Shown: positions 3,050 through 43,062, counted from the stretch's first letter. The stretch is DNA of 46,140 nt from Candidatus Hadarchaeota archaeon (GCA_964621445.1 CAZUNO010000023.1:1-46140), one strand, 5' to 3'. Program-made: numbers and translations. Notes: a model not told the origin generated them from the sequence alone.

Positions 3050-3458
3050 TTGAAAAGCCTCCACCGCCAATCATGGCCAGGCCTTGGCCATCCTCCACTA
3101 CCTCCTTCTTCATTCAGGAGAGCTGCTTGCCAGAGAAGGCCTTTCTGTTTGCGTCGCTAAGGATGACAACCTCAAAGTTCAAACCTGGAGTAGGTCCTCG
3201 GCATATATGCCCTTAGACTCTTCTTTATCTGCTCTACCTTCTGATGATGGGTACAAGCATAAACCGCCGTGGCATAGGGTGATGGCTCCTGATCAAGGAT
3301 GGGAAAGGGTTTGGAATCCCCATGGCGTCCCCCACGTAAAGCACGCGGATCCTCCCGGTGGCATGGCCCACTCTCAACTCACGAGCCACGGCAGCCGTGG
3401 ACGCCAGGGAGATTAAAAAGATGATCAGGCCCGGCAAGCGAAAGGCGCCACTCATCAA
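3050..3458 (-). pseudogene. Decayed N-terminal part of a YFPR-family membrane-anchored GATase1-like protein
   Basis: Signal peptide and TGRIRVLYVGD, then across frameshifts ILDQEP...IKKSLRAYMPRTYSRF, NFEVVILSDANRKAF and (TGA at 3114-3116) MKKEVVEDGQGLAMIGG. Resembles 21828-23057. Confidence 0.8.
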
Positions 3459-3856
3459 GAGACCCCCCTCAGCTGCTTAAGCTGAAGTCGCTGGTTCCGG
3501 ACGATCTCCTCCACTTTGGATGCCCCACTGGCCAAAAGAATTGTCTTCCATATCCCAGGCTTTTTGACTGCAGTGTCCCATCTATATCTGAATCCGCCTC
3601 TAGATGCCTTTCCTCCTGCAACCGTGTGCTAGATCGATATATTTGATGAGCCAATATCCGATTCAGGTTCATTGAGTAGATTCACTGCGACAAGGGAAAT
3701 GATCGCCGCAACACGGACGCGAACCTACTATATGAGAAGTTGTATCAACAGGATTTGACCAGACCGGTGTGTAGAATCGTAAGTCTTCCTAAATTTCTAT
3801 GAGTTTAGACCGGTTAGAGGGTAGAGCACAACATAAAATAGGGTCCTTCGGGCCAT

Positions 3857-5755
3857 GTGTCGTTGGTTTCCTTAACTGATCCGGTGCTATATCAAATTTT
3901 TATCCGCTTGAGCGCCATAACAAAACGCCTTCACGGAGATCTTGTATTGATTGAACACAAAGAGTTCCCCATAACCGATGTGATGGTTGATCTGGTGGTA
4001 ATAGGCGGCGGAATAGCAGGATGCACGGCCGCGGTGGCATCCTCCCGTCTTGGTCTAGATGTCGCCCTAGTACAGGACAGGCCGGTTCTCGGTGGAAATG
4101 CCTCCTCGGAGATCGGCCTTCTGATGGGTGGAGCGGATAGGGATTTCAAGCACGCGAGGGAAACCGGTATCGTTGAAGAGATCGACCTGACTAACAGGTA
4201 TTACAATCATGAGGTTCAATGGAGGAACTCCGTATCCGACGCCACGCTGGAAAATCTGGTCAAGGAGTCCGGTGTGAAACTCTACCTAAATACCCACGCA
4301 AACTCCGTGGAGATGGAGGAGAGTTCAATCTGCGCCGTCCTAGCAACTCAGCTTTCTACGGAGAAGAGATTCCGTTTCCTCTCCGACCTGTTCGTCGATT
4401 CCACGGGTGACGGGTCCATCGCCGCCCTGTCGGGAGCCGAGTATCGGAGAGGGACCGAGGCAAGGGAGGAGTTTGGGGAGAGCCTGGCCCCCGAGGAACC
4501 CTCGGATGTTACCATGGGCTCCACCCTCATGTTCCGGGTCAAGGACCTGGGAAGGCCGGCCCCTTTCACGCCCCCCGATTGGGCATATAGCTATCCAAAC
4601 AAGGAGGATCTCCCGGTCCAAATAAAATCCCTCGACTACCCCCAGCTTTGGATAGAACTGGGTGCAAGGAGGGACACCATCGCTGAGAACATGGAGATCC
4701 GGGAGGAACTCCTCAAGATTCTCTACGGCGTATGGGACCATATAAAAAACCACGGCGATTATGGAGCGGGCAATTTCGCGCTTTCATGGGTCGGCTCGGT
4801 TCCCGGCAAGAGGGAGAGCCGTCGGGTAGTAGGTGACTACATCCTAAGCCAGAAGGACCTAACTGCCCCCACGGAGTACAGCGACGCCGTCGCCTACGGT
4901 GGTTGGCCGGTCGATGTCCACAATCCTGACGGTTTCTACGCAAAGAGAAAATGGCTGGACTATACGCACCTGGACAAACCGTACCCGATTCCCTACCGAT
5001 GCTATTACTCCAAGGACATTGACAATCTCTTTATGGTTGGTAGGATCATCAGCACCACCCACGTTGCGCACGGCTCGATCCGTTTGATTAGAACCTGTGG
5101 CGTGGGAGGGCAGGCGGTGGGAACGGCCGCCTACCTCTGCAGGAAATATGGCAAACCTCCCAGAGAAGTAGGAAAGAGACACATCAAGGAGCTTCAGCAG
5201 CTCCTTCTCAAATACGATTGCTACATCCCCGGGGTGCAAAATGAAGATCCTGATGACATGGCCCCACGGGCGCGGGTCACCGCCTCAACCGAATACCAGG
5301 ATCTCGCATCCGGCAACGTTTTTTTGGCGGAGAAGGTCATTGAAGGCCTCTCCCGCGGCAGGGAAGGGGACGAGAACCTCTGGATGTCGGACCCGATTAC
5401 ATCCTTCTACCCCGCCTATATCCAGCTCGACTGGGAGAACCCCATTACCTTTGATACCATCCACCTGACCTTCGACACGATGGTTCGCGAACAGAGATTT
5501 TTCGACAGGCCAATGTTGGGAGCTACACCAACATGCGTAAAGGATTACAGCATTCTATACTTGGATACCTGTGAGGAATGGAGATCGCTAGCCAGCAGGA
5601 AGAATAACTTCCAGAGGCATAACATCATTCAATTCGACCCCATCAAGACCAAATCGATTAGAGTGAAGGTCGATGCCACAAACGGTGACCAACTGGCTAG
5701 AATATACGAGATTCGTGTCTACAACGAGGATAAGGGAAACAGGGGATATGATTGA
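3857..5755 (+). CDS. FAD-dependent oxidoreductase (FAD_oxidored family) with C-terminal F5/8 type C (discoidin)-like domain
   Basis: VVIGGGIAG FAD motif, QDRPVLGGNASSE, DSTGDG, GKRESRR, YPIPYRCYYSKDIDNLFMVGR, and a C-terminal RIYEIRVY. The true start is probably near 3947. Confidence 0.9.
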   Translation: MSLVSLTDPVLYQIFIRLSAITKRLHGDLVLIEHKEFPITDVMVDLVVIGGGIAGCTAAVASSRLGLDVALVQDRPVLGGNASSEIGLLMGGADRDFKHARETGIVEEIDLTNRYYNHEVQWRNSVSDATLENLVKESGVKLYLNTHANSVEMEESSICAVLATQLSTEKRFRFLSDLFVDSTGDGSIAALSGAEYRRGTEAREEFGESLAPEEPSDVTMGSTLMFRVKDLGRPAPFTPPDWAYSYPNKEDLPVQIKSLDYPQLWIELGARRDTIAENMEIREELLKILYGVWDHIKNHGDYGAGNFALSWVGSVPGKRESRRVVGDYILSQKDLTAPTEYSDAVAYGGWPVDVHNPDGFYAKRKWLDYTHLDKPYPIPYRCYYSKDIDNLFMVGRIISTTHVAHGSIRLIRTCGVGGQAVGTAAYLCRKYGKPPREVGKRHIKELQQLLLKYDCYIPGVQNEDPDDMAPRARVTASTEYQDLASGNVFLAEKVIEGLSRGREGDENLWMSDPITSFYPAYIQLDWENPITFDTIHLTFDTMVREQRFFDRPMLGATPTCVKDYSILYLDTCEEWRSLASRKNNFQRHNIIQFDPIKTKSIRVKVDATNGDQLARIYEIRVYNEDKGNRGYD

Positions 5756-7057
5756 GTGGGCCGGCCAGAGACTCTAGTCCGCAATAACCTGTTACCAAAG
5801 ATCAAAGAATTGGTAACCAGCAATGGACTATCCAAAATCAAGTTACCGCTGTTAAAAAAGGGAGCCCTGCTCCTTCTTCTTATCATAGCTATTTTACCCT
5901 CCTGCCACGGCAGTGAGCGTGAGATTGACGCACTGATCCTGGCTATGGCAACCGAAGTCGAAGCCGCCCAATTCTTCTTTGGCTCGGAGCCTCTCGTGAA
6001 CTATGTTGGGGTTCCATTTCGGCTTGACCAGATGTCGGAGCAGGAGGCAATCAAATCCATCAGAATGTACTTCCCCAGAAGCTACGCTGAGATGAGAGGA
6101 TATGACGTGATAATGCTGTGTTCGCCCAATTACGAGCTTCTCAGCACCAAGCAGGATCAGTGGATGTATAACGCAATCCAGGAGGGGACGGGGGGAATCA
6201 ACACCGCGAGCGTCCTCAGCTACATTCCCAAGATACACTGGGCATGGGCCAATTCCCATACATCCAAGGCCTTTCCCAACCAGGCGATGGCTGTTGCCAA
6301 GATGGGCGGCGGTCTTCAGATGAGCAGTACTCACTTCGTTGAGATTAATAGGGACTTTCCCGAACCCGTTCTGACGCCTTTCATACCCTTCGGGGTTGAG
6401 AAGATCCCGGGCAATGATGGCTCCCGATTGGTGCTTGCCCGAGAGGGCGCCAAGGTTCTGGCCTGGCAGATCGGGAACCACTATCAGGGAAAAGTTGACT
6501 ACCTGGTGGCTTGGGATTATGGTGAAGGAAGGACCATGACCATCGGGGAATTGGGATTTGGCAGGGACGCGGGTTGGTTTGACTATCGTCAACACGAGTA
6601 CGCCCCTGATATCCTAATGAACATGGTCTTCTATATGTCTGGAAGAGATTTGATAGAGGACGTGGCCCTCTTCCACAGACTCAAGACCAATTTCTTGGAG
6701 TTTAGGACAAGGATGATGGTGCTTACTTCCCTCATGGATTTCGTCGCCGGGTTCGGTGGGAACACCCAACAGATCCAGGAGGAAATATTGAAGCTTGATG
6801 GGATATATGATCATGGGGTCGACCTCTATCTTGACCAGAACTACGAACAGTGCGAAGAGGCCCTGCAATCCGGCCTGCAGCTTTTCTATGATGTGGAGGA
6901 CCTAGCAAGGAGGGTTAAGGATTCGGCCCTTCTATGGGTCTACGTAATAGAGTGGCTGGTTACCTCCTCTGCCTTCTTTTTCTCCGGCTTTGTCCTCTGG
7001 ACCCTGATGGTAAAGAGGAGAATGTACCGAGAAGTAAGAGTCACAAAATTGAGATAG
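5756..7057 (+). CDS. YFPR-family membrane-anchored surface protein (paralog 1)
   Basis: Signal peptide, IRMYFPRSY..YDVI, FGGNT stalk, ALLWVYVIEWLV-TM-MVKRRMYREV. The true start is probably downstream. Confidence 0.9.
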   Translation: MGRPETLVRNNLLPKIKELVTSNGLSKIKLPLLKKGALLLLLIIAILPSCHGSEREIDALILAMATEVEAAQFFFGSEPLVNYVGVPFRLDQMSEQEAIKSIRMYFPRSYAEMRGYDVIMLCSPNYELLSTKQDQWMYNAIQEGTGGINTASVLSYIPKIHWAWANSHTSKAFPNQAMAVAKMGGGLQMSSTHFVEINRDFPEPVLTPFIPFGVEKIPGNDGSRLVLAREGAKVLAWQIGNHYQGKVDYLVAWDYGEGRTMTIGELGFGRDAGWFDYRQHEYAPDILMNMVFYMSGRDLIEDVALFHRLKTNFLEFRTRMMVLTSLMDFVAGFGGNTQQIQEEILKLDGIYDHGVDLYLDQNYEQCEEALQSGLQLFYDVEDLARRVKDSALLWVYVIEWLVTSSAFFFSGFVLWTLMVKRRMYREVRVTKLR

Positions 7058-8334: not shown

Positions 8335-9012
8335 CTAGGACCTAACCCAAACCCCGCGAGCTCGCTGACCCGTCCTGGTCGAAGCTAGGAGAAATATCGA
8401 CAAGAGGACCGGGAGAAGCTGGTACTCATCGATTCCAAGACGCTCCTCATCGCATATACCATCGCTGTCCTGCTTGTTGAATACCACCTTTGCATGGAGA
8501 TCCTGCACCGCACTTGCCTCATACAGGAGGTGAGGTTGGTCCTCCCTTTCATCCCCGGGAAGACAGAATCGGTCGGGCTCGTATGGTAGGGTGAAACCTA
8601 CTTGGGAGACTGTACTATTTCCACCATGTATCGTCTCCGCAACGTCGGACAATGAGAGATCCGCTTCAAAGGAACGACCGGATGAATCAACCAGTGCCCA
8701 ATCCCCTGGACTACAATTCCAGGACCCGGCACCGTTGTGTTTGTAAACAACCGGAAAGGTTAGCTGTGACCCGGTATCATGCTCCGATATGGACCATGAC
8801 CCTATGGCCATAGCGAGCTGCCAATCCCTATAATCGCCAGGCAGCTCCCCACGGGCCTTGATCTCCCAACCATCGGTGACGAAGAAAACCGTGGACGAGT
8901 TATTCTCATAGTCCCAAAGACCAATTGTCTTTTGCCCCGCGATCCCTGGCAGTACCAGGATCGAGAGGCACAGGAAGAGCAGGTAAGCTACGGGCCTAGT
9001 CAGGATAAGCAC
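8335..9012 (-). CDS. Secreted Ig-like (DUF4352-like) protein with C-terminal IDE plus TM anchor
   Basis: Signal peptide, WALVDSSGRSF motif, C-terminal IDEYQLLPVLLSIFLLA followed by a basic tail. Confidence 0.6.
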   Translation of the reverse strand: MLILTRPVAYLLFLCLSILVLPGIAGQKTIGLWDYENNSSTVFFVTDGWEIKARGELPGDYRDWQLAMAIGSWSISEHDTGSQLTFPVVYKHNGAGSWNCSPGDWALVDSSGRSFEADLSLSDVAETIHGGNSTVSQVGFTLPYEPDRFCLPGDEREDQPHLLYEASAVQDLHAKVVFNKQDSDGICDEERLGIDEYQLLPVLLSIFLLASTRTGQRARGVWVRS

Positions 9013-9258
9013 CTAGATCGCCGTTTCCATATGTCACTTCAAATGTGTTTTTATGATAGAAGACTCGAGCCATGGACATAAGCGATTTGGCAAAGAACGG
9101 AAAAGATACATGCACCGTGGATGCAATAGAGAATGGAAGATGACCTCCTTTAATCCATCACGTTGGATTAATATGGCCTTTTTACACCATTATATTGGCA
9201 AGGCATAAATGGCCTTGGATCTACTCCATCCGTTGCAGTCACATCTACAGATGACCAA

Positions 9259-9543
9259 GTGCTCCGAATATTAGCATACCAATCCCTGGTGGTTAAAGGG
9301 GTCCATACCAGAACCCTACAGGAAGAAACCCCACCCGGGGCCCACAGCGGATGGGGATACATGGAAGGTGCCGTTCATATGAAACCCAAAACCGTTTTGC
9401 AGCATCTTGAATGGGCCGCTACCATGGATGCTAATTTGCCGTTAAATACCGGGCCATTACCGGACGGCGGAATTCACCCGGAAGACATAAACACCTTGAA
9501 AGCTGTGGGCAAACATATTAGGAAGAAAGGGTGGCCTGCCTGA
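9259..9543 (+). pseudogene. C-terminal fragment of an alpha-L-fucosidase (GH29)-like gene
   Basis: GWGY...ANLPLNTGPLPDGGIHPEDINTLKAVG matches the GH29 C-terminal LLN-x-GP-x-x-DG motif. The rest of the gene is absent. Confidence 0.65.
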
Positions 9544-9734
9544 CCTTGAAGCAACTATTCAACTAGAATAAGCGGACAGGAGCCCTGAATAGTAAATTAC
9601 GGCGAGACCATCCGAGGCAAGCACAAATTTGGTATTCTTTTTTATTGGAAAATTGTAATAGTCGAATGACTTCCAAAATAACTCACATGATTCGGAAGGG
9701 TAAAGCTTATGTGTCCCTGACGCCGCACAAGAAT

Positions 9735-12637: not shown

Positions 12638-12734
12638 GATTTATTTCGAAATGGCGGCAGTCATTTGCTCCTTCTCTTGGCCAGAAAAGACCGTCTTTTT
12701 CGACGGAGTTATGCCAAAAATGGCGACCCAAATC

Positions 12735-12742
12735 CTTAAATA
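12735..12742 (+). promoter_or_regulatory. Putative archaeal TATA box
   Basis: CTTAAATA about 30 nt upstream of ATG 12772. Confidence 0.35.
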
Positions 12743-12756
12743 TTTACAGGCAAAAT

Positions 12757-14013
12757 TTGGCTGGAACCGAAATGAAATATTCCAGGCTCTCTGTCAAACC
12801 ATTCAAATTAATTATGGCCCTAATTGTGTTCTCCCTGATTTTTCTTCCAACCTGTTTTGGTCAGGAAAAGATCAAGGCCATCGCTATAGGGGCCGGTGGC
12901 ATTATTGGAAGACTTGGAAAGATTTTCGAAAACGAGCCCCTTGTCTATTACGACTCGGTAATTGTCAGATCCTCACAATTCAGCAAGCTCTCAGACCAGA
13001 TGAAGGTGATTAGGCTTTACTTCCCCAGAAACTACGAAGAAATGAAAAGCTACGACCTCATACTTCTCGTTTGCACCGACTACTCACTCCTCACCACCAA
13101 GCAGGACAAGTGGATATACGATGCGATCAGGGAGGGTGCGGGCGGAATCAATGATGGTGGCATGTTCAGCGTGATAGCTCCCATCTCCACCGTTTGGGCC
13201 AACAGTCTCGCCCAACAGGCCTTCCCCAACAATGCTCCCCTAGTCGATACGAAAAACTGGAGGGCCACTCGAGGGTTCAGGGTTGAAATAAACCGCGACC
13301 ACCCCGAGCCAATCCTCACCCCCTTTATCCCTTACGATGTCGAGGAAGCACAGCTGGCAGGAGAAGTGGGTATGGTGATTCACAGGCAGGGATCCCAGGT
13401 GCTCGCCTGGCAGATCGGCAACTTCCCAACAAAGACCGACTTCCTGGTCAACTGGGAGTACGAGGAAGGTAGAACCATTACCAGCGGGCAGTACCTAGCG
13501 GAACTCTGGCTGGGATACCCGACACCTGAAACAAATAACCCGTATTCCGTGGATGTATTCATGAACCTGTTATTCTGGCTGACCAACAGGCCCCTGATCG
13601 ACGATATCGAGGTGTTCCACAGGGTCAAGACAACTTTCGAGGAGTACAGGTCCCGGCTCGGGATGCTGATCTCCCTCAGGGATTTCATCGACAAGTTCGG
13701 GGCCAACACCCAGAGGATACAGAGCGAGCTAATGAATCTCCAGGAAGAATACGAGCAGGCAACGGATCTTTATCTGGAGAACAATTTCGTGGATAGCGAG
13801 AGTGCCCTCGAGCAGGGACTGGAAAGATTCCCCAAGGCCGAGGATATCGCTAGAGAAGAGAAGGAGGCGGCCCTGTTATGGGTGTACATAATCGAGTGGC
13901 TGGTCGCCTCATCCGCAATGTTCATATCCGGCTTCGTCCTCTGGACGCTAATGGTCAGGAGAAGGCTATACAAGGACGTAACGGCCACCAGGCTATCACA
14001 GGTCGAGCAATAG
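12757..14013 (+). CDS. YFPR-family membrane-anchored surface protein (paralog 2)
   Basis: Signal peptide, IRLYFPRNY..YDLI, KFGANT, ALLWVYIIEWLV-TM-MVRRRLYKDV. The probable start is ATG 12772. Confidence 0.9.
   Translation: MAGTEMKYSRLSVKPFKLIMALIVFSLIFLPTCFGQEKIKAIAIGAGGIIGRLGKIFENEPLVYYDSVIVRSSQFSKLSDQMKVIRLYFPRNYEEMKSYDLILLVCTDYSLLTTKQDKWIYDAIREGAGGINDGGMFSVIAPISTVWANSLAQQAFPNNAPLVDTKNWRATRGFRVEINRDHPEPILTPFIPYDVEEAQLAGEVGMVIHRQGSQVLAWQIGNFPTKTDFLVNWEYEEGRTITSGQYLAELWLGYPTPETNNPYSVDVFMNLLFWLTNRPLIDDIEVFHRVKTTFEEYRSRLGMLISLRDFIDKFGANTQRIQSELMNLQEEYEQATDLYLENNFVDSESALEQGLERFPKAEDIAREEKEAALLWVYIIEWLVASSAMFISGFVLWTLMVRRRLYKDVTATRLSQVEQ
13930..14001 (+). repeat. 72-bp exact direct repeat, copy 1 (3' end of paralog 2)
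   Basis: GGCTTCGTCCTCTGG...GGCTATCACAG is identical to 15359-15430. Confidence 0.95.
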
Positions 14014-14140
14014 AAGAAAGCAAGAGGCGGAAAATGCTTGCAGCTATGCCCAACTACCAATAGGAGACCTTGGACACGGTATCCTTACCCAGAACTTCTT
14101 TTCTAGTCCCTTGAGACGAGGGTGATCCCAAAAAGGGAGC

Positions 14141-14148
14141 TATATATA
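14141..14148 (+). promoter_or_regulatory. Putative archaeal TATA box
   Basis: TATATATA preceded by a purine-rich stretch, about 30 nt before the in-frame ATG at 14177. Confidence 0.35.
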
Positions 14149-14158
14149 GTTAAAAAAA

Positions 14159-15442
14159 ATGAAATTTATCATAAGGATGAAAGAGAAGGCTCTCCCAATC
14201 ATCATCATGCTTCTTCTTGTAAGTTCCCCTTCCTATGCCAAGGATGAGGCGAGTAAGATCAAGGTAATTGGAACTGGCAAGGCCCAGGGAATGCCCATAT
14301 TAACCACCTGGTTCACCACCGAGCCGTCGACTGATGCTCTAATTATTCCAACCAGAGTGTATGGAGCGGTGAACGCGGAGTCCATAAGGAGGCACATGCG
14401 CATCTACTTCCCGCGTACGTACGGGGACATTCTAGAATACGCGTTCTTCTTCCTGGCCTCGGTGGATATGCAGTTCTTCGGACCGAAGCACGAGAAATGG
14501 ATCTACGATGCCCTGACCAATCACCAGAAGGGAGGGGTAAACACCAGAAGCGTAATGAGTGCGTACAATGTTTACAGCTTACCCTGGAGAGACAGCATTA
14601 TATCCGGGGCATTTCCGAATGACGCTCCCGCGGTCATAGCAGATAAAAAGATCATCCGTGGGGCCAGGATAATAAGGGAAGTGACCGGAGAACTGGTGGT
14701 AAGGGAGGAAACCGATCTGCCCAGGATCATGAAGCCCTTCAAGGAGCCCATAAACGGGATTTACAGGCAATACCGAGGCCTAACTACCATTCCCAAGCCC
14801 GGCTCGGTTATACTTTCATATGTCAAGACAAACCGGGACGTCGGCCACCCCGTCCCGGGGCAGGTGGCTCACGTGTTCTACTGGCAATGGAACCGATCGA
14901 TAACTTTCACCTTTCAGGACATGGTATATGATCGCTTCTGGAGCTCCAGAACAATTGGGGAGACCAATCCTTATGCCCTGGACATAATCATCAATATACT
15001 ATGGTTCAGCACCGGTAGAGAGCTACCCAGGGACCCCTATAGGATCCACGACTTCAGGAGCAATCTCTATGATTTCGCCATGAGAAAAAGTCTATTGGTA
15101 AGCCTTCTCGATTTCGCCGAAGGCTTTGGGGCGAATCCCTCTCAAGAGTATAAGAAATTGAGAGCCCTGGAAAACACCAAGTCCGATGCGTCTGGTCACT
15201 ACCTTGATGGAGATTTCGATGACGCCTATGAAGAAATGGAAACGGCCTTGGATCTTATGGGGGAGTTGGAGGAAGAGGCTAGGGAGCTTAAAGACAAGGC
15301 ACTCCTGTGGGTCTATTTTGTGGAATGGGCGGTTACCACGGGCATCTTCCTGATTGCAGGCTTCGTCCTCTGGACGCTAATGGTCAGGAGAAGGCTATAC
15401 AAGGACGTAACGGCCACCAGGCTATCACAGATCGACATATAG
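14159..15442 (+). CDS. YFPR-family membrane-anchored surface protein (paralog 3)
   Basis: MRIYFPRTY, NPYALDI, FGANP, ALLWVYFVEWAV-TM-MVRRRLYKDV. Its ectodomain is closest to 24792-26069. Confidence 0.9.
   Translation: MKFIIRMKEKALPIIIMLLLVSSPSYAKDEASKIKVIGTGKAQGMPILTTWFTTEPSTDALIIPTRVYGAVNAESIRRHMRIYFPRTYGDILEYAFFFLASVDMQFFGPKHEKWIYDALTNHQKGGVNTRSVMSAYNVYSLPWRDSIISGAFPNDAPAVIADKKIIRGARIIREVTGELVVREETDLPRIMKPFKEPINGIYRQYRGLTTIPKPGSVILSYVKTNRDVGHPVPGQVAHVFYWQWNRSITFTFQDMVYDRFWSSRTIGETNPYALDIIINILWFSTGRELPRDPYRIHDFRSNLYDFAMRKSLLVSLLDFAEGFGANPSQEYKKLRALENTKSDASGHYLDGDFDDAYEEMETALDLMGELEEEARELKDKALLWVYFVEWAVTTGIFLIAGFVLWTLMVRRRLYKDVTATRLSQIDI
15359..15430 (+). repeat. 72-bp exact direct repeat, copy 2 (3' end of paralog 3)
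   Basis: Identical to 13930-14001; the flanking bases differ. Confidence 0.95.
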
Positions 15443-17194: not shown

Positions 17195-18478
17195 TTAGTT
17201 AAAGCGTGTGGTAGTGGTTTCCCTATACAGCATCCTCTTGATCATGACAGCATGTATCACTACGCCACACAACATTCCAGTTGACACAACAACCAGCCAT
17301 TCGATGGTGTATGTCCAGATCAAGGCGATGTCCCTTAGACCCATCGCCTTGTCATCAGCACTCTTCACCTCCTTAATGCATTTCTCCCAGGTGGATATCG
17401 ACTGCTCCACCTCCTGGTTCAGGTACTCCACCTCAGCTTTCTCCGCCATGTCCTCTATTCTGCTTAAGTCTGACAGCAATCTTCCTGTGTTGGCCCCGAA
17501 CTTCTCGGCAAACTCCATAGTGGATAGGAGAATTCCGTAGCGATTTTGGAATTCCTGAGCCTTGATTCGGGCAAGGTGCAAGAGGGGAATATCCTGGTGA
17601 ACCTGCTTACCAAGAGTATTTAGGACCATATTTACAGCAATATCTACGACATACCTGTTTTCACCGCCTTCTGGAGGCGTCAGGAACCATTGGAGACCGA
17701 AAAATTCCGAAACTAACATCGTCCTCCCTTTGGAGTAATCCCAAGCCACAAGAAATGGAGCTCTCTGGATCCCGGGAAATCTTATACCCTTCATAAAACC
17801 GTATATTGTAGAACCTTCCCTGGGGATGATTAACCTGCCATAATTCCCGTGAATCCTTTCTATTCCCAGAGAACGGAATGGTTTTAACGGATTATTATCT
17901 CCAATTGCCGTGATCTCTACGGTAAATGGTTGCCATGCCGCCCCCCACTTTCCGGTGGAAACAACACCCGGAGCGTCGCTGGGAAAGACCTCCCACATCC
18001 CTGACCCTATCCATTTTGAAACTATATCATCCGTCACTGACACGCCCCCGAGATCGGCAATAGCTCCTTTGCCGCCCTCCTCAATCGCTCTTTTCAACAT
18101 CGATATCTGGGAAGAGCTGATGAAGTCAACGGATCCTCCTACATAGACGAATAGATCGCAGTCAAGCATGTTATCATAATTCCGGGGAAGATAAAGCCGA
18201 ATCGCCCGCTCATATTCCGTCGTTGTTAAGGACATTCCATAGCCTCTTGTGGGAACATGGGATACCGAAGTTAACGGTTCTGACATGAACCAGGAAACAA
18301 CAGGGGTCATCTGGGGCATTGTAGCTCCGATGGCCAGGATCTCTAATTGGCGGCTATCGACAGCATGGGCATATGACAAGACGGAGATCAGGCAAATCAA
18401 AACTAGCGACCACCAAGCAAAACGGAAAGCATTGAATTCGAGTTCTAAATTCAAGAGTTGTTCCCCGTGATTTCTCAA
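17195..18478 (-). CDS. YFPR-family membrane-anchored surface protein (paralog 4)
   Basis: IRLYLPRNY, FAEKFGANT, ALIWTYTIEWLV-TM-MIKRMLYRE. Confidence 0.9.
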   Translation of the reverse strand: MRNHGEQLLNLELEFNAFRFAWWSLVLICLISVLSYAHAVDSRQLEILAIGATMPQMTPVVSWFMSEPLTSVSHVPTRGYGMSLTTTEYERAIRLYLPRNYDNMLDCDLFVYVGGSVDFISSSQISMLKRAIEEGGKGAIADLGGVSVTDDIVSKWIGSGMWEVFPSDAPGVVSTGKWGAAWQPFTVEITAIGDNNPLKPFRSLGIERIHGNYGRLIIPREGSTIYGFMKGIRFPGIQRAPFLVAWDYSKGRTMLVSEFFGLQWFLTPPEGGENRYVVDIAVNMVLNTLGKQVHQDIPLLHLARIKAQEFQNRYGILLSTMEFAEKFGANTGRLLSDLSRIEDMAEKAEVEYLNQEVEQSISTWEKCIKEVKSADDKAMGLRDIALIWTYTIEWLVVVSTGMLCGVVIHAVMIKRMLYRETTTTRFN

Positions 18479-18593: not shown

Positions 18594-19865
18594 TTGAGAA
18601 AAATACTAAAGGCCCTTGAAAACCTTAGTCGCCACATGACATGGGCGAGCTTCAGGGTCATATCGATCCTCTTAATATCACTTATGGCAATTCCAATAAA
18701 TGTGTCGGCGGAAAACGACCTGGTCATGGAGTTCCTCATGGTGGGCGACGTTCAGGGATGGCCGAATAATTTAGGGGATGCACAACCGGCGATAGATATA
18801 AACCTGGTTCCATGTAGATCATTCTTCCTAGACTATTCGGACGAGGACCTTCAAAGGCTAAGCCGGGTTTACTTCCCCAGGAACATGGAGGTATTGAACG
18901 AGTACGAGGTCCTCTTTTTCAACCATCCGAGATTGAACTTCCTCACCCTTAACCAACAACTGATGATGGTCGAATTCGCGGGCACAAAGAATAAGGCATC
19001 AATTGCCTATCCTCTAAGCCACTACGAGGAGGTCCAGGACCCCTGGCTTAACAGCCCCATCTCCGAGGCCTTCCCCGTCGATGTCGAAAAGTTCGCCTCC
19101 GCAAGCCGACAGGGCCTGCCTGACGAGTTCGGTGGATACACCGGCCTAAGGCTCGATGTGAGGGACCCGCCAGTATTCGCCAATTTTGAGCCCTCCGGGA
19201 TATATGATTCAAAGATCTATCAGTGGTCAAGACCGGCCTTCGCCAAGGAGGGCGCCAAAATCTGGGTATCCATGATCGATGGCCCTCCTGCTCTGCCGGA
19301 AGCCCCGGCATTCCTCTCCTGGCCATATGAAGATTCCGAGACCTGGGCGTTCGGCATACATCCTAATCGGATGGGTTTTCATTGGGCCCAGGCCGGGGAG
19401 TGGTGGGAGCTGCAATTCCTTATCATATGCTACTATTCATCCGGTCGGGACATCCCGAAGTTCGACCAGATCCTGAACATGAAGCGGGTTCGATCCCAGT
19501 TCATCCACTTCAGGGAAGTGGAGTCCATGTTCCAGGGTGTGGTTAATTTCGTGTCCAAGGTAGGTGCAAATACCATGGAAAGCGAAGAGATCCTTCTGGA
19601 AGCCCAGATACTTAGGAGCGAGGCTGAGCTCGACTATCTCGAGGGCGCATACCAATCGGCGGATAACACTGTCGAAGAGGCACTGGACATGGTCAACCTT
19701 GCCATGGATGAGGCAATGGAGGCAAAGGACAGGGCTCTTACCTGGATCTACATCTCGGAATGGCTGGCAACATTCGCTGTAGCCATGCTATCCGGCTTCA
19801 TAGTATGGGAGCTCATGGTTAGAAGGATCCTTTACCGCCGAGTAAAAACCACCAAATTGAGATAG
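18594..19865 (+). CDS. YFPR-family membrane-anchored surface protein (paralog 5)
   Basis: SRVYFPRN, KVGANT, ALTWIYISEWLA-TM-MVRRILYRRV. Confidence 0.9.
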   Translation: MRKILKALENLSRHMTWASFRVISILLISLMAIPINVSAENDLVMEFLMVGDVQGWPNNLGDAQPAIDINLVPCRSFFLDYSDEDLQRLSRVYFPRNMEVLNEYEVLFFNHPRLNFLTLNQQLMMVEFAGTKNKASIAYPLSHYEEVQDPWLNSPISEAFPVDVEKFASASRQGLPDEFGGYTGLRLDVRDPPVFANFEPSGIYDSKIYQWSRPAFAKEGAKIWVSMIDGPPALPEAPAFLSWPYEDSETWAFGIHPNRMGFHWAQAGEWWELQFLIICYYSSGRDIPKFDQILNMKRVRSQFIHFREVESMFQGVVNFVSKVGANTMESEEILLEAQILRSEAELDYLEGAYQSADNTVEEALDMVNLAMDEAMEAKDRALTWIYISEWLATFAVAMLSGFIVWELMVRRILYRRVKTTKLR

Positions 19866-23057: not shown

Positions 23058-23169
23058 TGAGCCGGGGAATATTGGAATCTGCTAAATGTATTTCCCAGCA
23101 GAGTTGGATGCGTGGAAGTATTCAGAACCTCCATAATACAATCTAGCTTTCAGAGGACACTTTATTGGA

Positions 23170-23959
23170 ATGGGCTTTACTTCCATCGGTACGGAATCAA
23201 TCCCTAACCAAAATCAACCTCTGATTATAACCCAAAAAAAGAATAACAAAGACCTAATCCCGGAACCGGTTCTCATTCCGTTCATTCCTCTAGGAATAGA
23301 GAACTTCGTCGGCTACAAGGCCTACCGAATAACCCCAAGGACTGGAGCCCAGACACTTGCCTGGAATATCGATAGTTTTGATGACAAGGTACCTTACATG
23401 GTAACACGGGACTACGAGCAGACCCGAACCATGACCTTGGGAGGATTCATTTGGACTTCAATTCTGAAGCGGATATGCACATCGATATACCGAGGATAAC
23501 TACGGACTAGATATACTGATGAACATGGTGCTTTACCTGAACAGGAGAAAAATCCCCGATGAGGTGTTGATCATCCACCGAATAAGGATTTCATTCGTGG
23601 AGTTTCGGACAGGGATGGACATGCTCATGACCGTTTCCGAATTTGCCAGGGGCTTCGGGGCCAGCGATCGGGGCATAAGCGAGTTAACCAGCGGCCTTTA
23701 AGAGGAATATTCCGAAGCAATAGAGCTCTACCTACAGGATGAGTTCCAGGAGAGTGAGGAAAAGATGGAATCTCTGCTCATCGATCTAAACCAGGCCGAA
23801 GCCAGGATGATTGAACTCAAAGACCAGGCAATGTTTTGGATTCACCTAGTCGAATGGCTGGTTATCACCGCAACCGTCATGATTAGTGGCCTCGCCACCT
23901 GGACCCTGATGGTTCGCCGGAGGCTTTATAGAGAGGTACAAACACTTCGTTACGATTAG
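23170..23959 (+). pseudogene. YFPR-family paralog, 5'-truncated with a frameshift and an internal stop
   Basis: PEPVLIPFIPLGIE...LAWNI, a frameshift near 23460-23500, an in-frame TAA at 23699-23701, then AMFWIHLVEWLV-TM-MVRRRLYREV. Confidence 0.9.
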
Positions 23960-24791: not shown

Positions 24792-26069
24792 TTACCTAGA
24801 GGTGGCAGTGGTACCTACTTCCCGGTAGAGCCTTCTCCTGACCATTAATGTCCAGACCATGAACCCGGCAAAAAGCAAGGCCGCGGTGGTGATCAACCAT
24901 TCAACGACATACACCCACAGAAGGGCACGGTCTTTGAGCGTTGCCACCTTTTCCTCAAGGCTATCCAGTTCCTGAAGGGCGGTGTTCATGGTGTCATAGG
25001 CAACATCGAAATCTCTCTGAAGATAAAATCTGGAGGCCTGGCCCCGGATTTCCTGGACCTCGGCTAGCTCCGCATATTCATTTGAGGGGTTGGCACCGAA
25101 TATCTCAGCGAAATCTATGAGACTGGTGATTAGGCTCTGTTGAATCCCAAAGTCGTAAAGGTCCCTCCTGAAGTCGTGGACCTTGAATGGGTCCTCTGGA
25201 AGCTCTCTTCCCGTGCTGAACCAGACGATATTTGCAATTATGTCGAGGGCATAGGGATTCGAGTTCATCCCACCTGTGCGGAGGCCGCTCCAGAACAGGT
25301 CATATACTACTCCCCTGAATGTGAAGGTGATGGAATCATTCCAGTGCCAATAAAAAACCTGTGGAATCTGCCCCGGAATTGGTGACCCGATTCCCATGTT
25401 ATTCCTTGTATAGGAAAGGATGGTCGAGCCCGGCTTGGGGATGGTTAGAGGAAAATTTGAATGGTGGCTTATGTAGACCGGGATTAATTTTTCGATGCTT
25501 GTCCTATACGGCTTCATGATATTTGGCAGATCCGAATCATCCCTAATTACCAGTGGTCCTGAAGGGGCATCGAAGTTCCGATTATCCGATATTACCGCTG
25601 CTGCATCGTTTGGGAAGGCATTGGAGACCTGGCTCTCGACCCACGGCATGTAGAAATTGGCGTTAACGCTCATGGCGCTCCTGGTATTCACCGCTCCTTT
25701 TCGATGATCGGTGAGTCCATCAATGAGCCATCTCTGCTGTTTATCGCTCAGGGAGAACATGTCGACCTGATCCAGGAAGAAAAACTCGTACTCCAATAGG
25801 CCCTGGTAGCTGCGGGGAAAATAGATCCTAACGAACCGCTTGATGTCATTGCGGTCCACATCGCCATGCGCCCTAGTCGGAATGATCGTTGGATCGGTTG
25901 AAGGCTCGGTTAGGAACCAGGAGGTCAGGATGGGCATGCCTATCGCCCTTCCCGTACCCATTACCTTGATCCTGGTCGGCTTTCCCTGACCAAAAACGAT
26001 TGCAGGGAAGGCTAAAAGGATGACAAAGACTACTAGAGCTACCTCCCTATCCACGGGAAAAATGAACAA
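24792..26069 (-). CDS. YFPR-family membrane-anchored surface protein (paralog 8)
   Basis: VRIYFPRSY, NPYALDI, IFGANP, ALLWVYVVEWLI-TM-MVRRRLYREV. Confidence 0.9.
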   Translation of the reverse strand: MFIFPVDREVALVVFVILLAFPAIVFGQGKPTRIKVMGTGRAIGMPILTSWFLTEPSTDPTIIPTRAHGDVDRNDIKRFVRIYFPRSYQGLLEYEFFFLDQVDMFSLSDKQQRWLIDGLTDHRKGAVNTRSAMSVNANFYMPWVESQVSNAFPNDAAAVISDNRNFDAPSGPLVIRDDSDLPNIMKPYRTSIEKLIPVYISHHSNFPLTIPKPGSTILSYTRNNMGIGSPIPGQIPQVFYWHWNDSITFTFRGVVYDLFWSGLRTGGMNSNPYALDIIANIVWFSTGRELPEDPFKVHDFRRDLYDFGIQQSLITSLIDFAEIFGANPSNEYAELAEVQEIRGQASRFYLQRDFDVAYDTMNTALQELDSLEEKVATLKDRALLWVYVVEWLITTAALLFAGFMVWTLMVRRRLYREVGTTATSR

Positions 26070-37432: not shown

Positions 37433-37767
37433 TATCGATTGCAGAATCGCCCATTAAGATAAAGACTGGTTGAAAAGGGAGGGAGCGACCCTATCAAATT
37501 CAGAGGAATTTCTTTTCGCTCGGGGGCCTCCTGTTTCCCAACTGAAAGGTTAGTCGTCTGCCCGGCCCTTAACCTTCCTAGCCGGCCAGTCCTGCTTCGA
37601 GAGCGGGTTTGACTTCCGTCAAGGTTGATGGACAATGATGCACAACCACGCCCTGGAAAAAACCGGCGAGCAGGAAAATTTTTTAGAGTCATATTGTTTG
37701 CCCCTCCGGGTGCTCTCATTAGGATCCACACGCCTAGCTTTCTTGGTTTTGCCGACATGACCATCTT

Positions 37768-39356: not shown

Positions 39357-39928
39357 CCCAGACGGTGGTTCTTCTTTTCCAACCGCATCCCTCCGACCAC
39401 CTTCTGGTACTGGATGCGCTAAGGGAAAAAAACGGTGATCATCTCCAATAGCTCGGTTACCATGGAATTCAACCGCAGCCTGTGGATAGAATATGACCTG
39501 AATGAGACCACCCTATCATACCAGTTCATGAACACCGAGGGCATAGATACCACCAAGATCACCGATTCCATAGCTCTAATCGCCCTGGGCGAGGGGGAGA
39601 AACCCGGGATAGTGATCACCAAATACGATTCCACCACCACTCCTCGACAACTAACTAGGGGGTGGGGACTATCAAGGTTAGAAGAAACTACCGGCAAGTA
39701 CCTTAACTTCTCGCTTATGCAGAGCGGCGAGGACACAATGGTGGTCCAGGTTAGGGAGTCCCATGGGATCATCGATGAGATGGAGGCAATAATACTGGGT
39801 CTCGATGAAGAGGCATTCAAGATACCCGACCTCGAGAAATTCTACAAAAAGCACTACCTGAGAAATATCAGGAGGACCCGATAAAGAAATCTAGATACGA
39901 GTCATGGAATGGTATGCCTGCTTGATAT
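39357..39928 (+). pseudogene. Deleted and degenerate copy of the 3' part of the 2286-aa gene
   Basis: Matches about 35871-36238, 37010-37145 and 37370-37435. Positions 39390-39655 are identical to 35904-36168 except for one extra A in an A-run. Confidence 0.9.
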
Positions 39929-40078
39929 GGATCCCGGATATCGTCCACTATCCCGACAGTTTTCCTTATCCAACCCCCACCTGACCAGGCGGAGAGATGT
40001 TTAATACGAGAACCAAGACGAAAGACTCTTCAACGGGTATACTCCCTGAAAAGGGTATTATCTCAGGAGGAAGCGACC

Positions 40079-41731
40079 TTGTCAAATAGAAATCATTTCC
40101 TTGATGGGAACTACCCATTGATCGGGAGGATAGGTATCGCTTTCCTCTTCGCCCTGCTCGTACTTCACTGCACCGCAATTTACGCCCTCAACACGTCGGC
40201 AAACCAGCCCCATGGAGGGAATGATATTCCCTATTTGCTTCTGGTGTGGTCTAGGATGCAAAATTTTGATCAGCAAGCAATGAAACTATTGGAAGAATCC
40301 CATTACAACGGAACCGCTCTCAAGCCTTTTTCGGCCGGATATGACGGACCTATACCTGATCTCGAAAATTATATTTCCCTCCTTGATGATCTGAACGAGC
40401 TCAAGTCCAACTCCACAAAGGCTCTGTGGCCTGCCGTATACCTGAATAGGATAGTAGGGTATCATCCCGATGAACCCCCAGGTAGCAGCGAGTACTTCAG
40501 GAAGATCGATGGTATCGACCTGGATAATGAATCGGGGGCCAGGGCTGATTTCGAAAAGATCTTCACCCTTGCCCTGCAGATGGCTCGTCACCTTGAAAGC
40601 CCGGGCATAGTGTTGGACCTGGAGGCTTACAATGCAAAGGGTTCCGGGGTTAACCCCGTTTACCACATGAATAACCTGATGTATATCCGTGGGGAGACGG
40701 AAAACGTGCTGGTTCAAAAACTTCAATCATTTGGACATTCGCTGGCAGATATCGCTGCCCAGACCTATCCCGGGTGCAAGATCATGTTTCTATTCACCAG
40801 CCATGATTGGTCGGTGGCCGAAATCGTGGTGGGCATGTTGGACAGGACGCGGGAATTGGACTCTGGCGTCCATATGATCGATGGCGGGGAGGTTGGAATT
40901 GGTTATTGCAGCGAGGACGTGGAGCATCTAAGGTCTAAGATCAGGGAAAGGGAGGAAGTGTGGGCCGAGAAGTTTCCCTATCCTCCCGATCTGTTCAGCC
41001 TCGGGGGAACCATATGTCCCTACCTCAACCGTTCAAAAGCCTCCAGCTTTCTCCTAAACAATGGCCCCCAGATTAAGACATTGAGGGATTTCGAGCCCTT
41101 GTTCCATGAACTCTTCGATGCCTTCGACCTGATATGGATCTACTCCGGTGGATCAGATTACACTCCATTAAATCCCAACGACGCCGCCGTATTCAACGAG
41201 GTGTTTGGCCAGATGATCGACAACTACAAGGCCTATGGTAAGAAGAGTCCTAAGCTTGTTGAGAACCTAGTTGAGGACCTAAGGAATGCGATCATTGACG
41301 CTGCGGAAGATGGAGTGGAAACCACCGCCTACAACCAGAGCATGGATGATGTAATCTCCCTCTGCGACCAAGACAGATATCCCGAGGCATATGATCTGGT
41401 GGAAACCGTCCTATCAAGCGTCACTGAAGCACATGAAAATGCCAAGATATCCCATGCACAGGAGCTCATCTCAAAGGCAGAGGAAAAGATCGCGTTGGCC
41501 AAACATGAAGGCATAGACACCTCCAGGTGCGAACTCTTTCTAAGCAAGGCCAGGCAAGCACTAGAAGAAGGTCAATATAGATCGGTGGAATCCATGTGCG
41601 CTTGCGCGTTGAATTTGCAGGAAAAAATTCCAGAGAGTATTACGATGACATTCCTCGCCAATGTCATTTTATCTATTGTGCTAATACACCTCTCATCTCG
41701 ACCTCATCGGAATGCACATCGAGACATTTAA
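40079..41731 (+). CDS. Secreted putative glycoside-hydrolase-like (TIM-barrel) protein with helical stalk and IPE plus TM tail
   Basis: Signal peptide, GIVLDLEAY, MIDGGE, IWIYS, helical EGIDTSRCE..LSKARQAL, C-terminal KIPESITMTFLANVILSIVLIHL plus a basic tail. Confidence 0.55.
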   Translation: MSNRNHFLDGNYPLIGRIGIAFLFALLVLHCTAIYALNTSANQPHGGNDIPYLLLVWSRMQNFDQQAMKLLEESHYNGTALKPFSAGYDGPIPDLENYISLLDDLNELKSNSTKALWPAVYLNRIVGYHPDEPPGSSEYFRKIDGIDLDNESGARADFEKIFTLALQMARHLESPGIVLDLEAYNAKGSGVNPVYHMNNLMYIRGETENVLVQKLQSFGHSLADIAAQTYPGCKIMFLFTSHDWSVAEIVVGMLDRTRELDSGVHMIDGGEVGIGYCSEDVEHLRSKIREREEVWAEKFPYPPDLFSLGGTICPYLNRSKASSFLLNNGPQIKTLRDFEPLFHELFDAFDLIWIYSGGSDYTPLNPNDAAVFNEVFGQMIDNYKAYGKKSPKLVENLVEDLRNAIIDAAEDGVETTAYNQSMDDVISLCDQDRYPEAYDLVETVLSSVTEAHENAKISHAQELISKAEEKIALAKHEGIDTSRCELFLSKARQALEEGQYRSVESMCACALNLQEKIPESITMTFLANVILSIVLIHLSSRPHRNAHRDI

Positions 41732-41757
41732 CCAGGCAGAAATTGGATTAAATTTTC

Positions 41758-43062
41758 ATGCCTGAGTTCAAATGGGGTAAGGCCAAACTAGCAAGTAGCA
41801 TAGCAGATGATAATCATGCTCCAGAATTGACGGAAATCGTGCCGCTTTGCTTGCTTGTCCTAGCCATAATTTCATCAAGTTTTTTGGCACAGGCCAACGC
41901 GGCTGACCAGGTGAGAATTCTGGCCATGGGTCAGGTCGACCCTGATTACAGTCCTCTTCTGGGATTCATGAACTCCGAGCCTTCATTCGATGGAACTCTC
42001 CTAATCTGCAGGTCTATTTTCGTTGAATATAGCGAGCCGGAATTGAGGAGATTCATGAGGATATACTTCCCCCGAACCTATGATGACCTAATCGAGTACG
42101 ATTATTTTGTGTTCGACCAGCCAATGCTCGTTCTATTCAATGACGAACACATCAAGTGGATGTACCAGGCAATGGAGAGAGAGGGAACCGGGGCTCTCGC
42201 CTTCACCATTAGCCAACGTACGGAAATGTACGGTCCCTGGATGAACTCAGTTCTCCCCGAGGCATTTCCTCATGATCAGGAAAAGATAATCGCCAAGGCA
42301 CAGTACAATATAGTTTCCTATGACATAGATGTGAATGACGATCCACAACTGCCTCCGGTTCTTAAGCCGTTCAAGGATCTAGGTATAGAGGAGATCAGGC
42401 CCTTCGGAAAAATAAGGTTATTGTTCAGGAAACAGGGCACCACGATATGGGCCACGGCAAAGGACCTCTCCCTGTATGGATTTCCAAGCTGTCCTCTGTT
42501 AATCTCCTGGGAATACGGAGAAAAAAACTCGAGAATATGGTCGACCGCAAACCAGTTCCATCACCCATTCTGGGATCAGAGGGACGGGAAGGAAAGATAC
42601 GCGCTGGATATTTTCAGCAACATAGTATCATATGGGTGTCGGAGGGGTCTTCCCAGGAACATATTGATGGTGCACAGGATCAGAGAGCATTTCACCCAAT
42701 ACAAGTCCAGAATGGGAATGCTCTACTCACTCCTGGACTTTGTGGAAAGGTTTGGCGCCAGTACACAGAAGATCCAGGGATATATCTCCCAGCTAGATTC
42801 CATGGAAGAGGAAGCCGAGGAACTCTATCTAAGCCAGGAATTCGAGTCAACCCTTGCCCAACAGGAGGAGATCTTCGATTTCTTCTCCAAAGTAGAGTCG
42901 GAGGCCGTGGATGTGAAGGAAAACGCACTCCTGTGGGTCTATGTCCTGGAATGGATAACCGTGAGCGGAACCGGTATGCTGACCGGCTTCGTTATCTGGA
43001 CAATTATGGTCCGCAGGAGATTCTACAGGGAGGTAAAGGTTACCCGAAAAAAGAATCGCTGA
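41758..43062 (+). CDS. YFPR-family membrane-anchored surface protein (paralog 9)
   Basis: MRIYFPRTYDDLIEYD, RYALDI, RFGAST, ALLWVYVLEWIT-TM-MVRRRFYREV. Confidence 0.9.
   Translation: MPEFKWGKAKLASSIADDNHAPELTEIVPLCLLVLAIISSSFLAQANAADQVRILAMGQVDPDYSPLLGFMNSEPSFDGTLLICRSIFVEYSEPELRRFMRIYFPRTYDDLIEYDYFVFDQPMLVLFNDEHIKWMYQAMEREGTGALAFTISQRTEMYGPWMNSVLPEAFPHDQEKIIAKAQYNIVSYDIDVNDDPQLPPVLKPFKDLGIEEIRPFGKIRLLFRKQGTTIWATAKDLSLYGFPSCPLLISWEYGEKNSRIWSTANQFHHPFWDQRDGKERYALDIFSNIVSYGCRRGLPRNILMVHRIREHFTQYKSRMGMLYSLLDFVERFGASTQKIQGYISQLDSMEEEAEELYLSQEFESTLAQQEEIFDFFSKVESEAVDVKENALLWVYVLEWITVSGTGMLTGFVIWTIMVRRRFYREVKVTRKKNR

Follow-up and report, generated by a model that had tools for sequence, protein, structure and literature searches.

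The stretch of DNA analysed here, referred to in its full length of 46,140 nucleotides as the window (Candidatus Hadarchaeota archaeon, GCA_964621445.1, CAZUNO010000023.1:1-46140), carries nine intact genes and two relics of a family of membrane-anchored surface proteins. These loci are the local share of a lineage-specific and much larger family, which has 117 intact copies in the source genome. Each copy is a type I membrane protein: a signal peptide is followed by a GATase1-like head, a three-helix stalk, a membrane helix and a basic tail. The head is apparently non-catalytic by the criteria of the GATase1 fold, and a strong depletion of N-x-S/T glycosylation sequons indicates that it must stay free of glycans. 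The reading that we prefer, and hold tentatively, is that the family forms a repertoire of membrane-tethered, non-catalytic binding heads, probably for glycans. We favour it because the heads appear to be non-catalytic, extracellular, glycan-free and rich in tryptophan, because their lineages are old and maintained, and because of the precedent of Bt1761, a surface glycan-binding protein (SGBP) for levan.

Extent, architecture and age of the family

The source assembly has a size of 3.21 Mb in 89 contigs, is 96% complete and 4% contaminated, and includes the window as contig C23. A hidden Markov model (HMM) was built from the nine window copies, as an earlier note on this DNA had proposed, and compared with all stop-to-stop open reading frames (ORFs) of at least 80 amino acids in the source genome, as well as with other archaea. 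It finds the 117 intact full-length copies and 49 partial ORF pieces. The pieces merge into 32 loci: 10 are cut by contig ends, 14 are of full length but split by a frameshift or a stop, and 8 are truncated relics. The assembly is a metagenome assembly, so sequencing errors may explain some of the split loci. In total, the source genome holds about 149 family loci; the family DNA amounts to 167.7 kb, or 5.2% of the genome, and is spread over 41 of the 89 contigs. An all-against-all clustering of 2959 crude gene calls makes this family the biggest paralog cluster of the genome, with 148 genes. The next clusters are sulfatases (45), ABC ATPases (40), URO-D-like proteins (40), GFO/IDH/MocA proteins (30) and xylose-isomerase-like TIM barrels (16). 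The URO-D-like family, one member of which lies at 11519-12637 of the window (PF01208), is best known from haem synthesis and methyltransferases; a cluster of 40, the same size as that of the ABC ATPases, is unusual.

The profile matches in all four genomes of the same GTDB family, where the first-look candidates number 174, 155, 123 and 240, and in none of another 37 archaeal genomes that were searched. Only five species genomes make up the GTDB phylum: the fifth, G004, is without a match and has a single first-look candidate. A search of 1.84 billion representative proteins gives 970 clusters at E <= 1e-3 and 310 at E <= 1e-30. The 68 matches obtained from a word index are named only "hypothetical protein" or "uncharacterized membrane protein", and two of them bear PF07090; a search with a single protein found one related public contig, labelled Candidatus Hadarchaeota. 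None of 6484 candidates of 810-2310 amino acids is a fused form at E <= 1e-5, which is weak evidence against such forms.

The eleven loci of the window are the following; coordinates are those of the window.

5756..7057, plus strand: paralog 1, 433 amino acids; E 1.7e-169 to the family profile, no sequons
12757..14013, plus strand: paralog 2, 418 amino acids; shares a subclade of 11 leaves with paralog 1
14159..15442, plus strand: paralog 3, 427 amino acids; shares a subclade of 8 leaves with paralog 8
17195..18478, minus strand: paralog 4, 427 amino acids; the most isolated copy, its closest paralog in the genome being 33% identical
18594..19865, plus strand: paralog 5, 423 amino acids
19993..21246, minus strand: paralog 6, 417 amino acids
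21828..23057, minus strand: paralog 7, 409 amino acids; the copy nearest to Pfam GATase1_like (PF07090)
24792..26069, minus strand: paralog 8, 425 amino acids
41758..43062, plus strand: paralog 9, 434 amino acids; the copy used for the structure model
23137..23956, plus strand: relic A, a broken copy without the N-terminal third; profile columns 168-262 and 266-428
about 3075..3428, minus strand: relic B, a frameshifted N-terminal remnant from the signal peptide to about column 144 (columns 29-144)

The ORF listing and the alignment give nine intact ORFs of 409-434 amino acids that align end to end, the others being 24-46% identical to paralog 1. Relic A lies in two frames and has one TGA and one TAA inside; relic B retains the motif RAYMPRTY, with a weak match (E 0.002-0.004) in a small six-frame hmmsearch. 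The earlier note had described a family of 11, nine intact genes and two pseudogenes of one architecture, occupying about a quarter of the window: this account is borne out, and the measured share of the eleven loci is about 12.6 kb, or 27% of the window, but the repertoire in the genome comprises at least 117 genes. The columns invariant in all nine window paralogs include R-x-Y-x-P-R, and all nine have in common the C-terminal anchor pattern A-L-x-W-x-Y-x-x-E-W ... G ... M-x-R-R ... Y ... T; the hairpin motif F-x-x-x-F-G-A-N is part of their consensus.

An AlphaFold2 (AF2) model of paralog 9, computed with an alignment of 62 sequences, has a predicted local distance difference test score (pLDDT) of 90.8 and a predicted template modelling score (pTM) of 0.84. 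It begins with a hydrophobic helix at residues 27-45, which is followed by three parts:

41911..42636, plus strand: GATase1-like alpha/beta head, residues 52-293
42661..42933, plus strand: helical stalk, made of helices 302-331 and 337-358 and the start of helix 362-419; pLDDT 95-98
42934..43059, plus strand: membrane helix and basic cytoplasmic tail, residues 393-434 approximately

The last stalk helix, 362-419, passes unbroken into the membrane. Of the 117 copies, 115 have a hydrophobic core near the N-terminus; in 101 of these, a small-x-small site comes no more than 16 residues later, and the first strand of the domain starts at a median of 8 residues past the core. The signal peptide, judged from these two features rather than by a dedicated predictor, looks cleavable. 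Basic residues stand ahead of the N-terminal core and R-R-R follows the C-terminal helix, which places the head outside the cell. The alignment and the model thus agree with the architecture first proposed for these genes, namely signal peptide, variable head, helical hairpin, conserved membrane helix and basic tail.

Conservation along the protein is uneven. Among the 117 intact copies, the median pairwise identity is 21% in the head, 26% in the stalk and 49% in the anchor, so that the ectodomains are indeed, as had been claimed, far more diverged than the anchors. Columns conserved in at least 90% of the copies are A388, W391, E396, W397, G408, W412, M415, Y421 and T427 in the anchor, and P72, R97, Y99, P101, R102, W159, P169, G331 and Y355 elsewhere; the basic cytoplasmic tail, of roughly 15 residues, is conserved as well. 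Variation is highest at profile columns 181-220 and 261-280. An HMM of the anchor matched 145 ORFs of the source genome, all of them family members or fragments except one ORF of 81 amino acids (E 0.0077); in this search the anchor was found on no other head. In the ESM Atlas, the stalk and anchor match only unnamed archaeal clusters (best 0.91), which are probably fragments of family members.

The nearest paralog within the genome is 52% identical at the median, and lies within 10 kb for only 5 of the 117 copies: the cluster in the window is therefore not a recent tandem array. When the 117 copies were compared with 190 outside sequences, an incomplete set, 60 had a closer relative outside the genome than inside. 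In a tree built from 307 sequences, the sister group consists of outside sequences only for 52 copies, is mixed for 29, and holds only sequences of the same genome for 36; window copies fall together in three pairs, within subclades of 23, 11 and 8 leaves, and none are sisters. Individual window copies have counterparts in the three sister genomes G001, G002 and G003 to varying extents: the best matches of paralog 1 are at 59, 56 and 48% identity and those of paralog 7 at 55, 50 and 51%; paralog 5 has matches at 55% in G001 and G003 and none at E <= 1e-85 in G002; paralog 4 has a match at 62% in G003 only, and at 33-34% in the other two. For paralog 9, orthologue-like public matches stand at 74, 66 and 53% identity. 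Judged from these comparisons, the repertoire is old and largely maintained, with some turnover. The birth-and-death evolution proposed earlier holds only in part: the 14 split and 8 truncated loci and the paralogs without counterparts in sister genomes are in its favour, but most lineages are old.

Fold, residue composition and sequons of the head

Pfam barely recognizes the head. Among the nine window copies only paralog 7 matches PF07090 (E 4e-4, 20.4 bits), and none reaches the gathering cut-off of 27 bits; in a set of 62 family members, 7 match at E <= 0.1, the best at E 1.1e-10. In NCBIfam, no match above the cut-offs was found for the window paralogs. The family profile, compared with the PDB, retrieves 2gk3 (E 1.4e-6), 3soz (E 1.8e-6) and 3rht (E 4e-4), and the same PF07090-type structures are matched by the model (Foldseek, VIA), with Z 20.5 for 2gk3, 20.4 for 3rht and 19.8 for 3soz; the superposition on 2gk3 has a root-mean-square deviation of 2.8 over 210 residues, in the range 50-296 of the model. 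Lower matches are ThuA-like domains (Z 15.7 and 15.2), IFT52 (14.1), OST48 (13.8 for 8b6l_N and 13.7 for 6s7t_G) and Wbp1 (13.5 for 7oci_G), followed by many GATase1-fold domains of carbohydrate-active enzymes and by the levan SGBP chain 8aa2_G (Z 10.8).

Conservation stays below 75% in every Cys and His column of the 117 copies, and the columns that follow the G-x-G strand are variable; the Cys-His-Glu triad of class I amidotransferases is absent, and we reject the possibility that these proteins are catalytic class I glutamine amidotransferases. The earlier note had assigned the head to the GATase1-like (DUF1355, now PF07090) type and had linked it to the extracellular GIFT modules: profile and model bear out the assignment, and the link holds at the level of the fold. 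It had also named three outcomes that would speak against it, a full-length match to a characterised family, an invariant catalytic site, and the lack of a GATase-like fold in predicted structures; no full-length characterised match was found, the triad is absent, and the fold is there.

The heads are rich in aromatic residues: 13.0% are aromatic and 3.3% are Trp, versus 9.9% and 2.0% in other secreted-like proteins. They are poor in sequons. The 117 intact copies contain 36 sequons in 49,451 residues, while shuffled sequences lead to an expectation of 181, a ratio of 0.20; 86 copies have none, 26 have one and 5 have two. Among 192 public homologues the ratio is 0.26, and 142 are without any sequon. 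In the same genome, the ratio is 2.06 for 224 secreted-like proteins and 0.90 for 1524 cytoplasm-like proteins, two classes drawn with a crude hydrophobicity rule from crude gene calls. Five other families with signal peptides, including the families c6 and c12 described below, have ratios of 1.4-3.4; a sixth, small family is uninformative, with 1.0 sequons expected. The contents of Asn, Ser and Thr in the family are ordinary.

The few sequons that remain are not scattered evenly: of the 26 that fall in the aligned part, 13 are at profile columns 252-253 and 5 in the signal-peptide region. The single sequon of paralog 3, at residue 245, probably corresponds to the region of columns 252-253. 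The 3813 residues of the nine window paralogs include 4 sequons in total; for their secreted neighbours, the counts are 43 in 2286 amino acids, 10 in 470, 6 in 550 and 4 in 225. Two STT3/AglB matches lie back to back in the source genome, at C32:7184-8434 on the minus strand and 8703-9560 on the plus strand. A ratio far under the cytoplasmic baseline means selection against glycosylation, which in turn implies heads that are exposed to the oligosaccharyltransferase.

Readings of the family and its genome context

If the family is a repertoire of tethered binding heads, these would work like the SGBPs of Bacteroides. The variable, Trp-rich heads would bind diverse polysaccharides or oligosaccharides, perhaps acidic or sulfated ones; sulfatases and enzymes of sugar catabolism, we note, make up the next-largest families of the genome. 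A common chassis would be formed by the invariant R-x-Y-x-P-R motif together with stalk and anchor, and the anchor and tail might dock every paralog to one common partner in the membrane or the cytoplasm. The sequons may have been purged so that the glycans of the cell itself do not mask the lectin heads. The analysis shows the architecture, the fold, the lack of a triad, the copy number, the age of the paralogs and the loss of sequons; what we infer is binding as such, the glycan nature of the ligands, and the docking through the anchor. The earlier note had likewise proposed ligand-binding or adhesion tips on a common stalk and anchor, an idea for which Bt1761 now offers a structural precedent. 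A more specific form of the proposal, which we consider rather doubtful, is that more than 100 glycan-free GATase1-fold lectin heads would all connect, by one invariant membrane helix and tail, to one shared membrane machine, as the archaeal, single-membrane counterpart of an SGBP-based utilisome, for a wide range of probably sulfated polysaccharides.

Several observations weigh against the glycan-binding proposal. The match to Bt1761 is no better than those to many other GATase1-fold domains, and the invariant Arg/Tyr/Arg motif may serve catalysis or structure instead of a binding chassis. The classes used in the sequon comparison are crude, although the contrast is large enough to survive this. 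Sulfatases lie within two genes of a family gene 14 times versus 6.5 expected (p 0.003, uncorrected across dozens of clusters), a modest adjacency. Coupling to transporters was rejected: only 1 of the 40 ABC ATPase genes has a family gene no more than two genes away, and polytopic membrane genes adjoin family genes 10 times versus 10.4 expected, which is chance level. Finally, the one family clearly enriched beside these genes, c6, is a protein that is neither an enzyme nor a transporter, and fits protein docking at least as well.

Seven of the 14 c6 genes adjoin a family gene, versus 1.1 expected (p 3.4e-5). The c6 proteins have about 280 amino acids, are rich in sequons, and consist of a conserved N-terminal membrane helix and two beta-sandwich domains (AF2 pLDDT 86.6); their best fold match, at Z 9.0, is to generic Ig-like or pilin-like beta-sandwiches, and all of 30 public homologues are unnamed or hypothetical and without a Pfam domain. 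The c12 proteins, of about 325 amino acids, have a signal peptide, a ThuA/GATase1-like head, a helix and a C-terminal membrane span; their head is distantly related to that of the family (hhalign probability 75%, E 2.5e-5, 196 columns), and at E <= 1e-40 they occur only in the same four genomes. In the source genome, 13 of the 14 c6 genes stand beside a member of the family (7), of c12 (8) or of both, on contigs C4, C5, C6, C10, C13, C15, C25, C32, C45 and C65. In the three sister genomes, 27 of the best 30 c6 loci (L091-L120) are near a family gene and/or a c12 gene: within 1.5 kb, 13 have a family gene and 22 a c12 gene, often in the order family-c6-c12. Among the seven family-c6 pairs of the source genome, five have the family gene first and c6 after it on the same strand, and in four of these the two genes touch or overlap (gaps of -8 to 9 bp). 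A c6 gene also follows the best match of paralog 7 in both G001 and G003.

This module suggests an alternative in which the heads bind proteins of the surface and, together with c12, hold or assemble the c6 glycoproteins and perhaps other envelope proteins. The relation between the c12 and family heads fits such a docking scaffold, and the paired family copies are only 24-41% identical to each other, so that the pairing is either old or repeated. Only about 7 of about 117 copies have these neighbours, however: the window contains no c6 gene, and none of its nine copies has a c6 or c12 neighbour. Gene neighbourhood alone is no proof of binding either, and we consider such a docking role unlikely. 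Less likely still is that the proteins are extracellular enzymes of an undescribed kind, with R-x-Y-x-P-R and conserved Asp residues as the active site, for example of a lyase or esterase acting on acidic polysaccharides, and with variable loops that would set the substrate specificity. R97, Y99, P101 and R102 are conserved at 96-100% in spite of the divergence of the heads, and D111, D282 and D299 at 82-84%; the genome context is rich in glycan catabolism, and the fold superfamily includes many hydrolases. But no Cys, Ser or His nucleophile is conserved at the elbow position of the fold, the closest relatives (PF07090; 2gk3, 3soz, 3rht) are without known activity, and part of the conserved core (F-P, Y-D, G-x-G, L-P) is common to PF07090 proteins and so looks structural. 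We similarly give little credence to a variable coat against viruses or grazers, with exchangeable heads on a constant anchor in the manner of the variant-specific surface proteins (VSPs) of Giardia. A constant anchor and tail under highly diverged heads, more than 100 dispersed copies of which 22 are broken, and differences in presence and absence among sister genomes are all expected of such a coat; paralogs that are old and that seldom have their nearest relatives as neighbours, with many counterparts at 50-74% identity in other genera, are not. Nor do the upstream regions of 114 copies contain a common element for expression of one copy at a time: no 8-mer or 9-mer recurs in at least 8 of them, and the best 7-mer, with p 6e-5 among 57 tests, is AT-rich. 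The idea of a shared promoter element was abandoned.

Two further alternatives bear on the anchor and on the glycosylation machinery. The C-terminus could be a sorting signal cleaved by an archaeosortase-like enzyme, leaving a lipid-anchored mature protein, an improbable fate that could be combined with any of the roles proposed for the head. Two genes of the Exosortase_EpsH type are present in each of the four family-bearing genomes and none in the sister genome that is without the family; the genome has no PGF-CTERM match, and three of the nine window paralogs match PVV_CTERM of NCBIfam weakly, below the cut-off (E 0.003-0.09). Known sorting signals, on the other hand, are common to unrelated proteins, whereas this anchor is confined to one head in the genome; in the model, the membrane helix continues the stalk helix without a flexible linker; and the tail is long, with a conserved Tyr and Thr. 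Of the eight archaeosortase loci in the four genomes, one has a family copy within 1.5 kb, a proportion that we read as chance, and the positional link was rejected. At that locus, C19:25944-28000 of the source genome, a frameshifted family copy is directly downstream of the archaeosortase-like gene; the arrangement is absent from the other seven. It is very improbable that the family provides accessory subunits of a glycosylation or export machinery, similar to OST48 and Wbp1. The topology and the fold matches are compatible with this, the avoidance of sequons betrays some relation to N-glycosylation, and Wbp1 itself is described as a GIFT-domain protein proposed to bind a sugar or a lipid-linked donor (PMC7226087). 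Yet the family profile retrieves no OST48 or Wbp1 chain at E <= 1, the PF07090 structures match far better (Z about 20), and more than 100 diverged copies are hard to reconcile with a subunit of one enzyme. The STT3 genes (C32, 7184-9560) have no adjoining family gene, the only match to their contig in the profile search of the assembly being about 13 kb away.

Family genes form tight same-strand pairs more rarely than other genes do, 32 of 116 versus 991 of 2185. The neighbours in the window are mostly catabolic enzymes of cytoplasmic appearance, among them an FAD oxidoreductase with an F5/8-type-C domain, a weak GH43-like protein, an M28 peptidase, a URO-D-like protein, a histidine phosphatase and a DUF5703/GH95-like protein; the start of paralog 1 abuts the stop, at 5755, of this FAD-oxidoreductase gene. 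The first-look candidates for sulfatases, which are loose and unconfirmed, number 52, 42, 22 and 26 in the four family-bearing genomes and 3 in the genome without the family. The source genome has only six BPD_transp_1 matches, about three classical binding-protein-dependent importers, versus about 45 sulfatases, 30 GFO/IDH/MocA proteins and 16 xylose-isomerase-like proteins. For the region 12700-21300 of the window, a search for expression data listed seven runs of DNA type and no RNA run.

A few other features of the window deserve mention. At 40079-41731, a gene encodes a protein of 550 amino acids that has no Pfam match, contains six sequons and is hydrophobic in one segment near the N-terminus and in another near the C-terminus. 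Only 26 bp separate the end of this gene from paralog 9, which lies on the same strand, and the two may be co-transcribed. The region 39357-39932 is a patchwork partial copy, 82-96% identical to 35871-36236, 37010-37145 and 37373-37439: it is located about 2 kb downstream of the gene for the surface protein of 2286 amino acids, has the 3' part of that gene as its source, and looks like a pseudo-copy of the gene end derived by deletion. An ORF of 167 amino acids at 946-1449 has an AbiV/HEPN abortive-infection domain (PF18728, E 6e-12). A gene of the NAD-synthase family, at 44907-45875, is without a counterpart at E <= 1e-40 in any of the sister genomes, although all three are 91-100% complete.

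Significance and comparison with known systems

In the literature searched, on GATase1-like and DUF1355 proteins (judged by title and abstract), on Hadarchaeota and on sequon avoidance in archaea, we found no description of the family; together with the unnamed public homologues, this agrees with the earlier note, which recognised no described system of such a form. The head is a branch of a known but uncharacterised superfamily, and we found no published description of the chassis of stalk and anchor, the size of the expansion, the purge of sequons, or the c6/c12 module. If the binding heads that we propose are real, this would be the first large repertoire of surface receptors described in archaea, and a handle on the capture of complex polysaccharides by a wall-less cell with a single membrane, in which the invariant anchor and tail would point to a common partner. 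The purge is a clean signature of selection at the level of the sequence, and could help to find other proteins that must stay glycan-free. Whatever its function, the largest family of the genome, unannotated and restricted to a single lineage, is an excellent subject for structural and biochemical study.

The closest solved relatives are the PF07090 (formerly DUF1355) proteins STM3548 (2gk3), STM1381 (3soz) and 3rht of Planctomyces limnophilus. They share the fold of the head domain, with 207-213 residues aligned, and its core motifs, and are likewise without a catalytic triad. These solved members are annotated as cytoplasmic or are without the stalk and anchor of the family. Specific to the family are R-x-Y-x-P-R, the F-G-A-N hairpin, a conserved membrane helix with its tail, an expansion of more than 100-fold and the purge of sequons. 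The GIFT proteins OST48/Wbp1, IFT52 and GldG belong to the same fold class, but sequence profiles give no match to them. OST48 and Wbp1 also share with the family a type I topology with a short basic tail, but they are single-copy subunits with two lumenal domains, and DDOST_48kD is absent among the 16 Pfam families matched by 62 family members. GldG differs by its membrane helices at both ends and by a gene that stands beside its own ABC transporter; PF09822, the GldG-type domain, is matched by none of the 62 members.

The VSPs of Giardia are a large dispersed family, in which variable ectodomains are carried by a conserved membrane helix and a short invariant cytoplasmic tail. Their fold is unrelated, and they differ from the archaeal paralogs, which are ancient, have counterparts in other genera, and reveal no switching mechanism in their upstream k-mers.

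A further comparison is with Bt1761 (8aa2), of the levan utilisome of Bacteroides thetaiotaomicron. Both are tethered domains of the ThuA/GATase1 fold, aligned at Z 10.8 over 194 residues: the likeness rests on the fold, and sequence similarity is no part of the comparison. The tether is built differently, Bt1761 having an N-terminal lipid anchor and two Ig-like spacers where the family has a C-terminal helical stalk and a membrane helix. Bt1761 docks on SusC in the outer membrane, and its gene is part of a polysaccharide utilisation locus, while the family genes are mostly solitary. Bt1761 is described as binding levan through its membrane-tethered ThuA-like domain, and as losing this binding in the W297A/W359A mutant (bioRxiv 10.1101/2022.08.15.503959). 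On that account, it is a non-catalytic domain, held off the cell surface, that binds a polysaccharide through tryptophans, and it is one of many paralogous binding proteins in an organism that degrades glycans.

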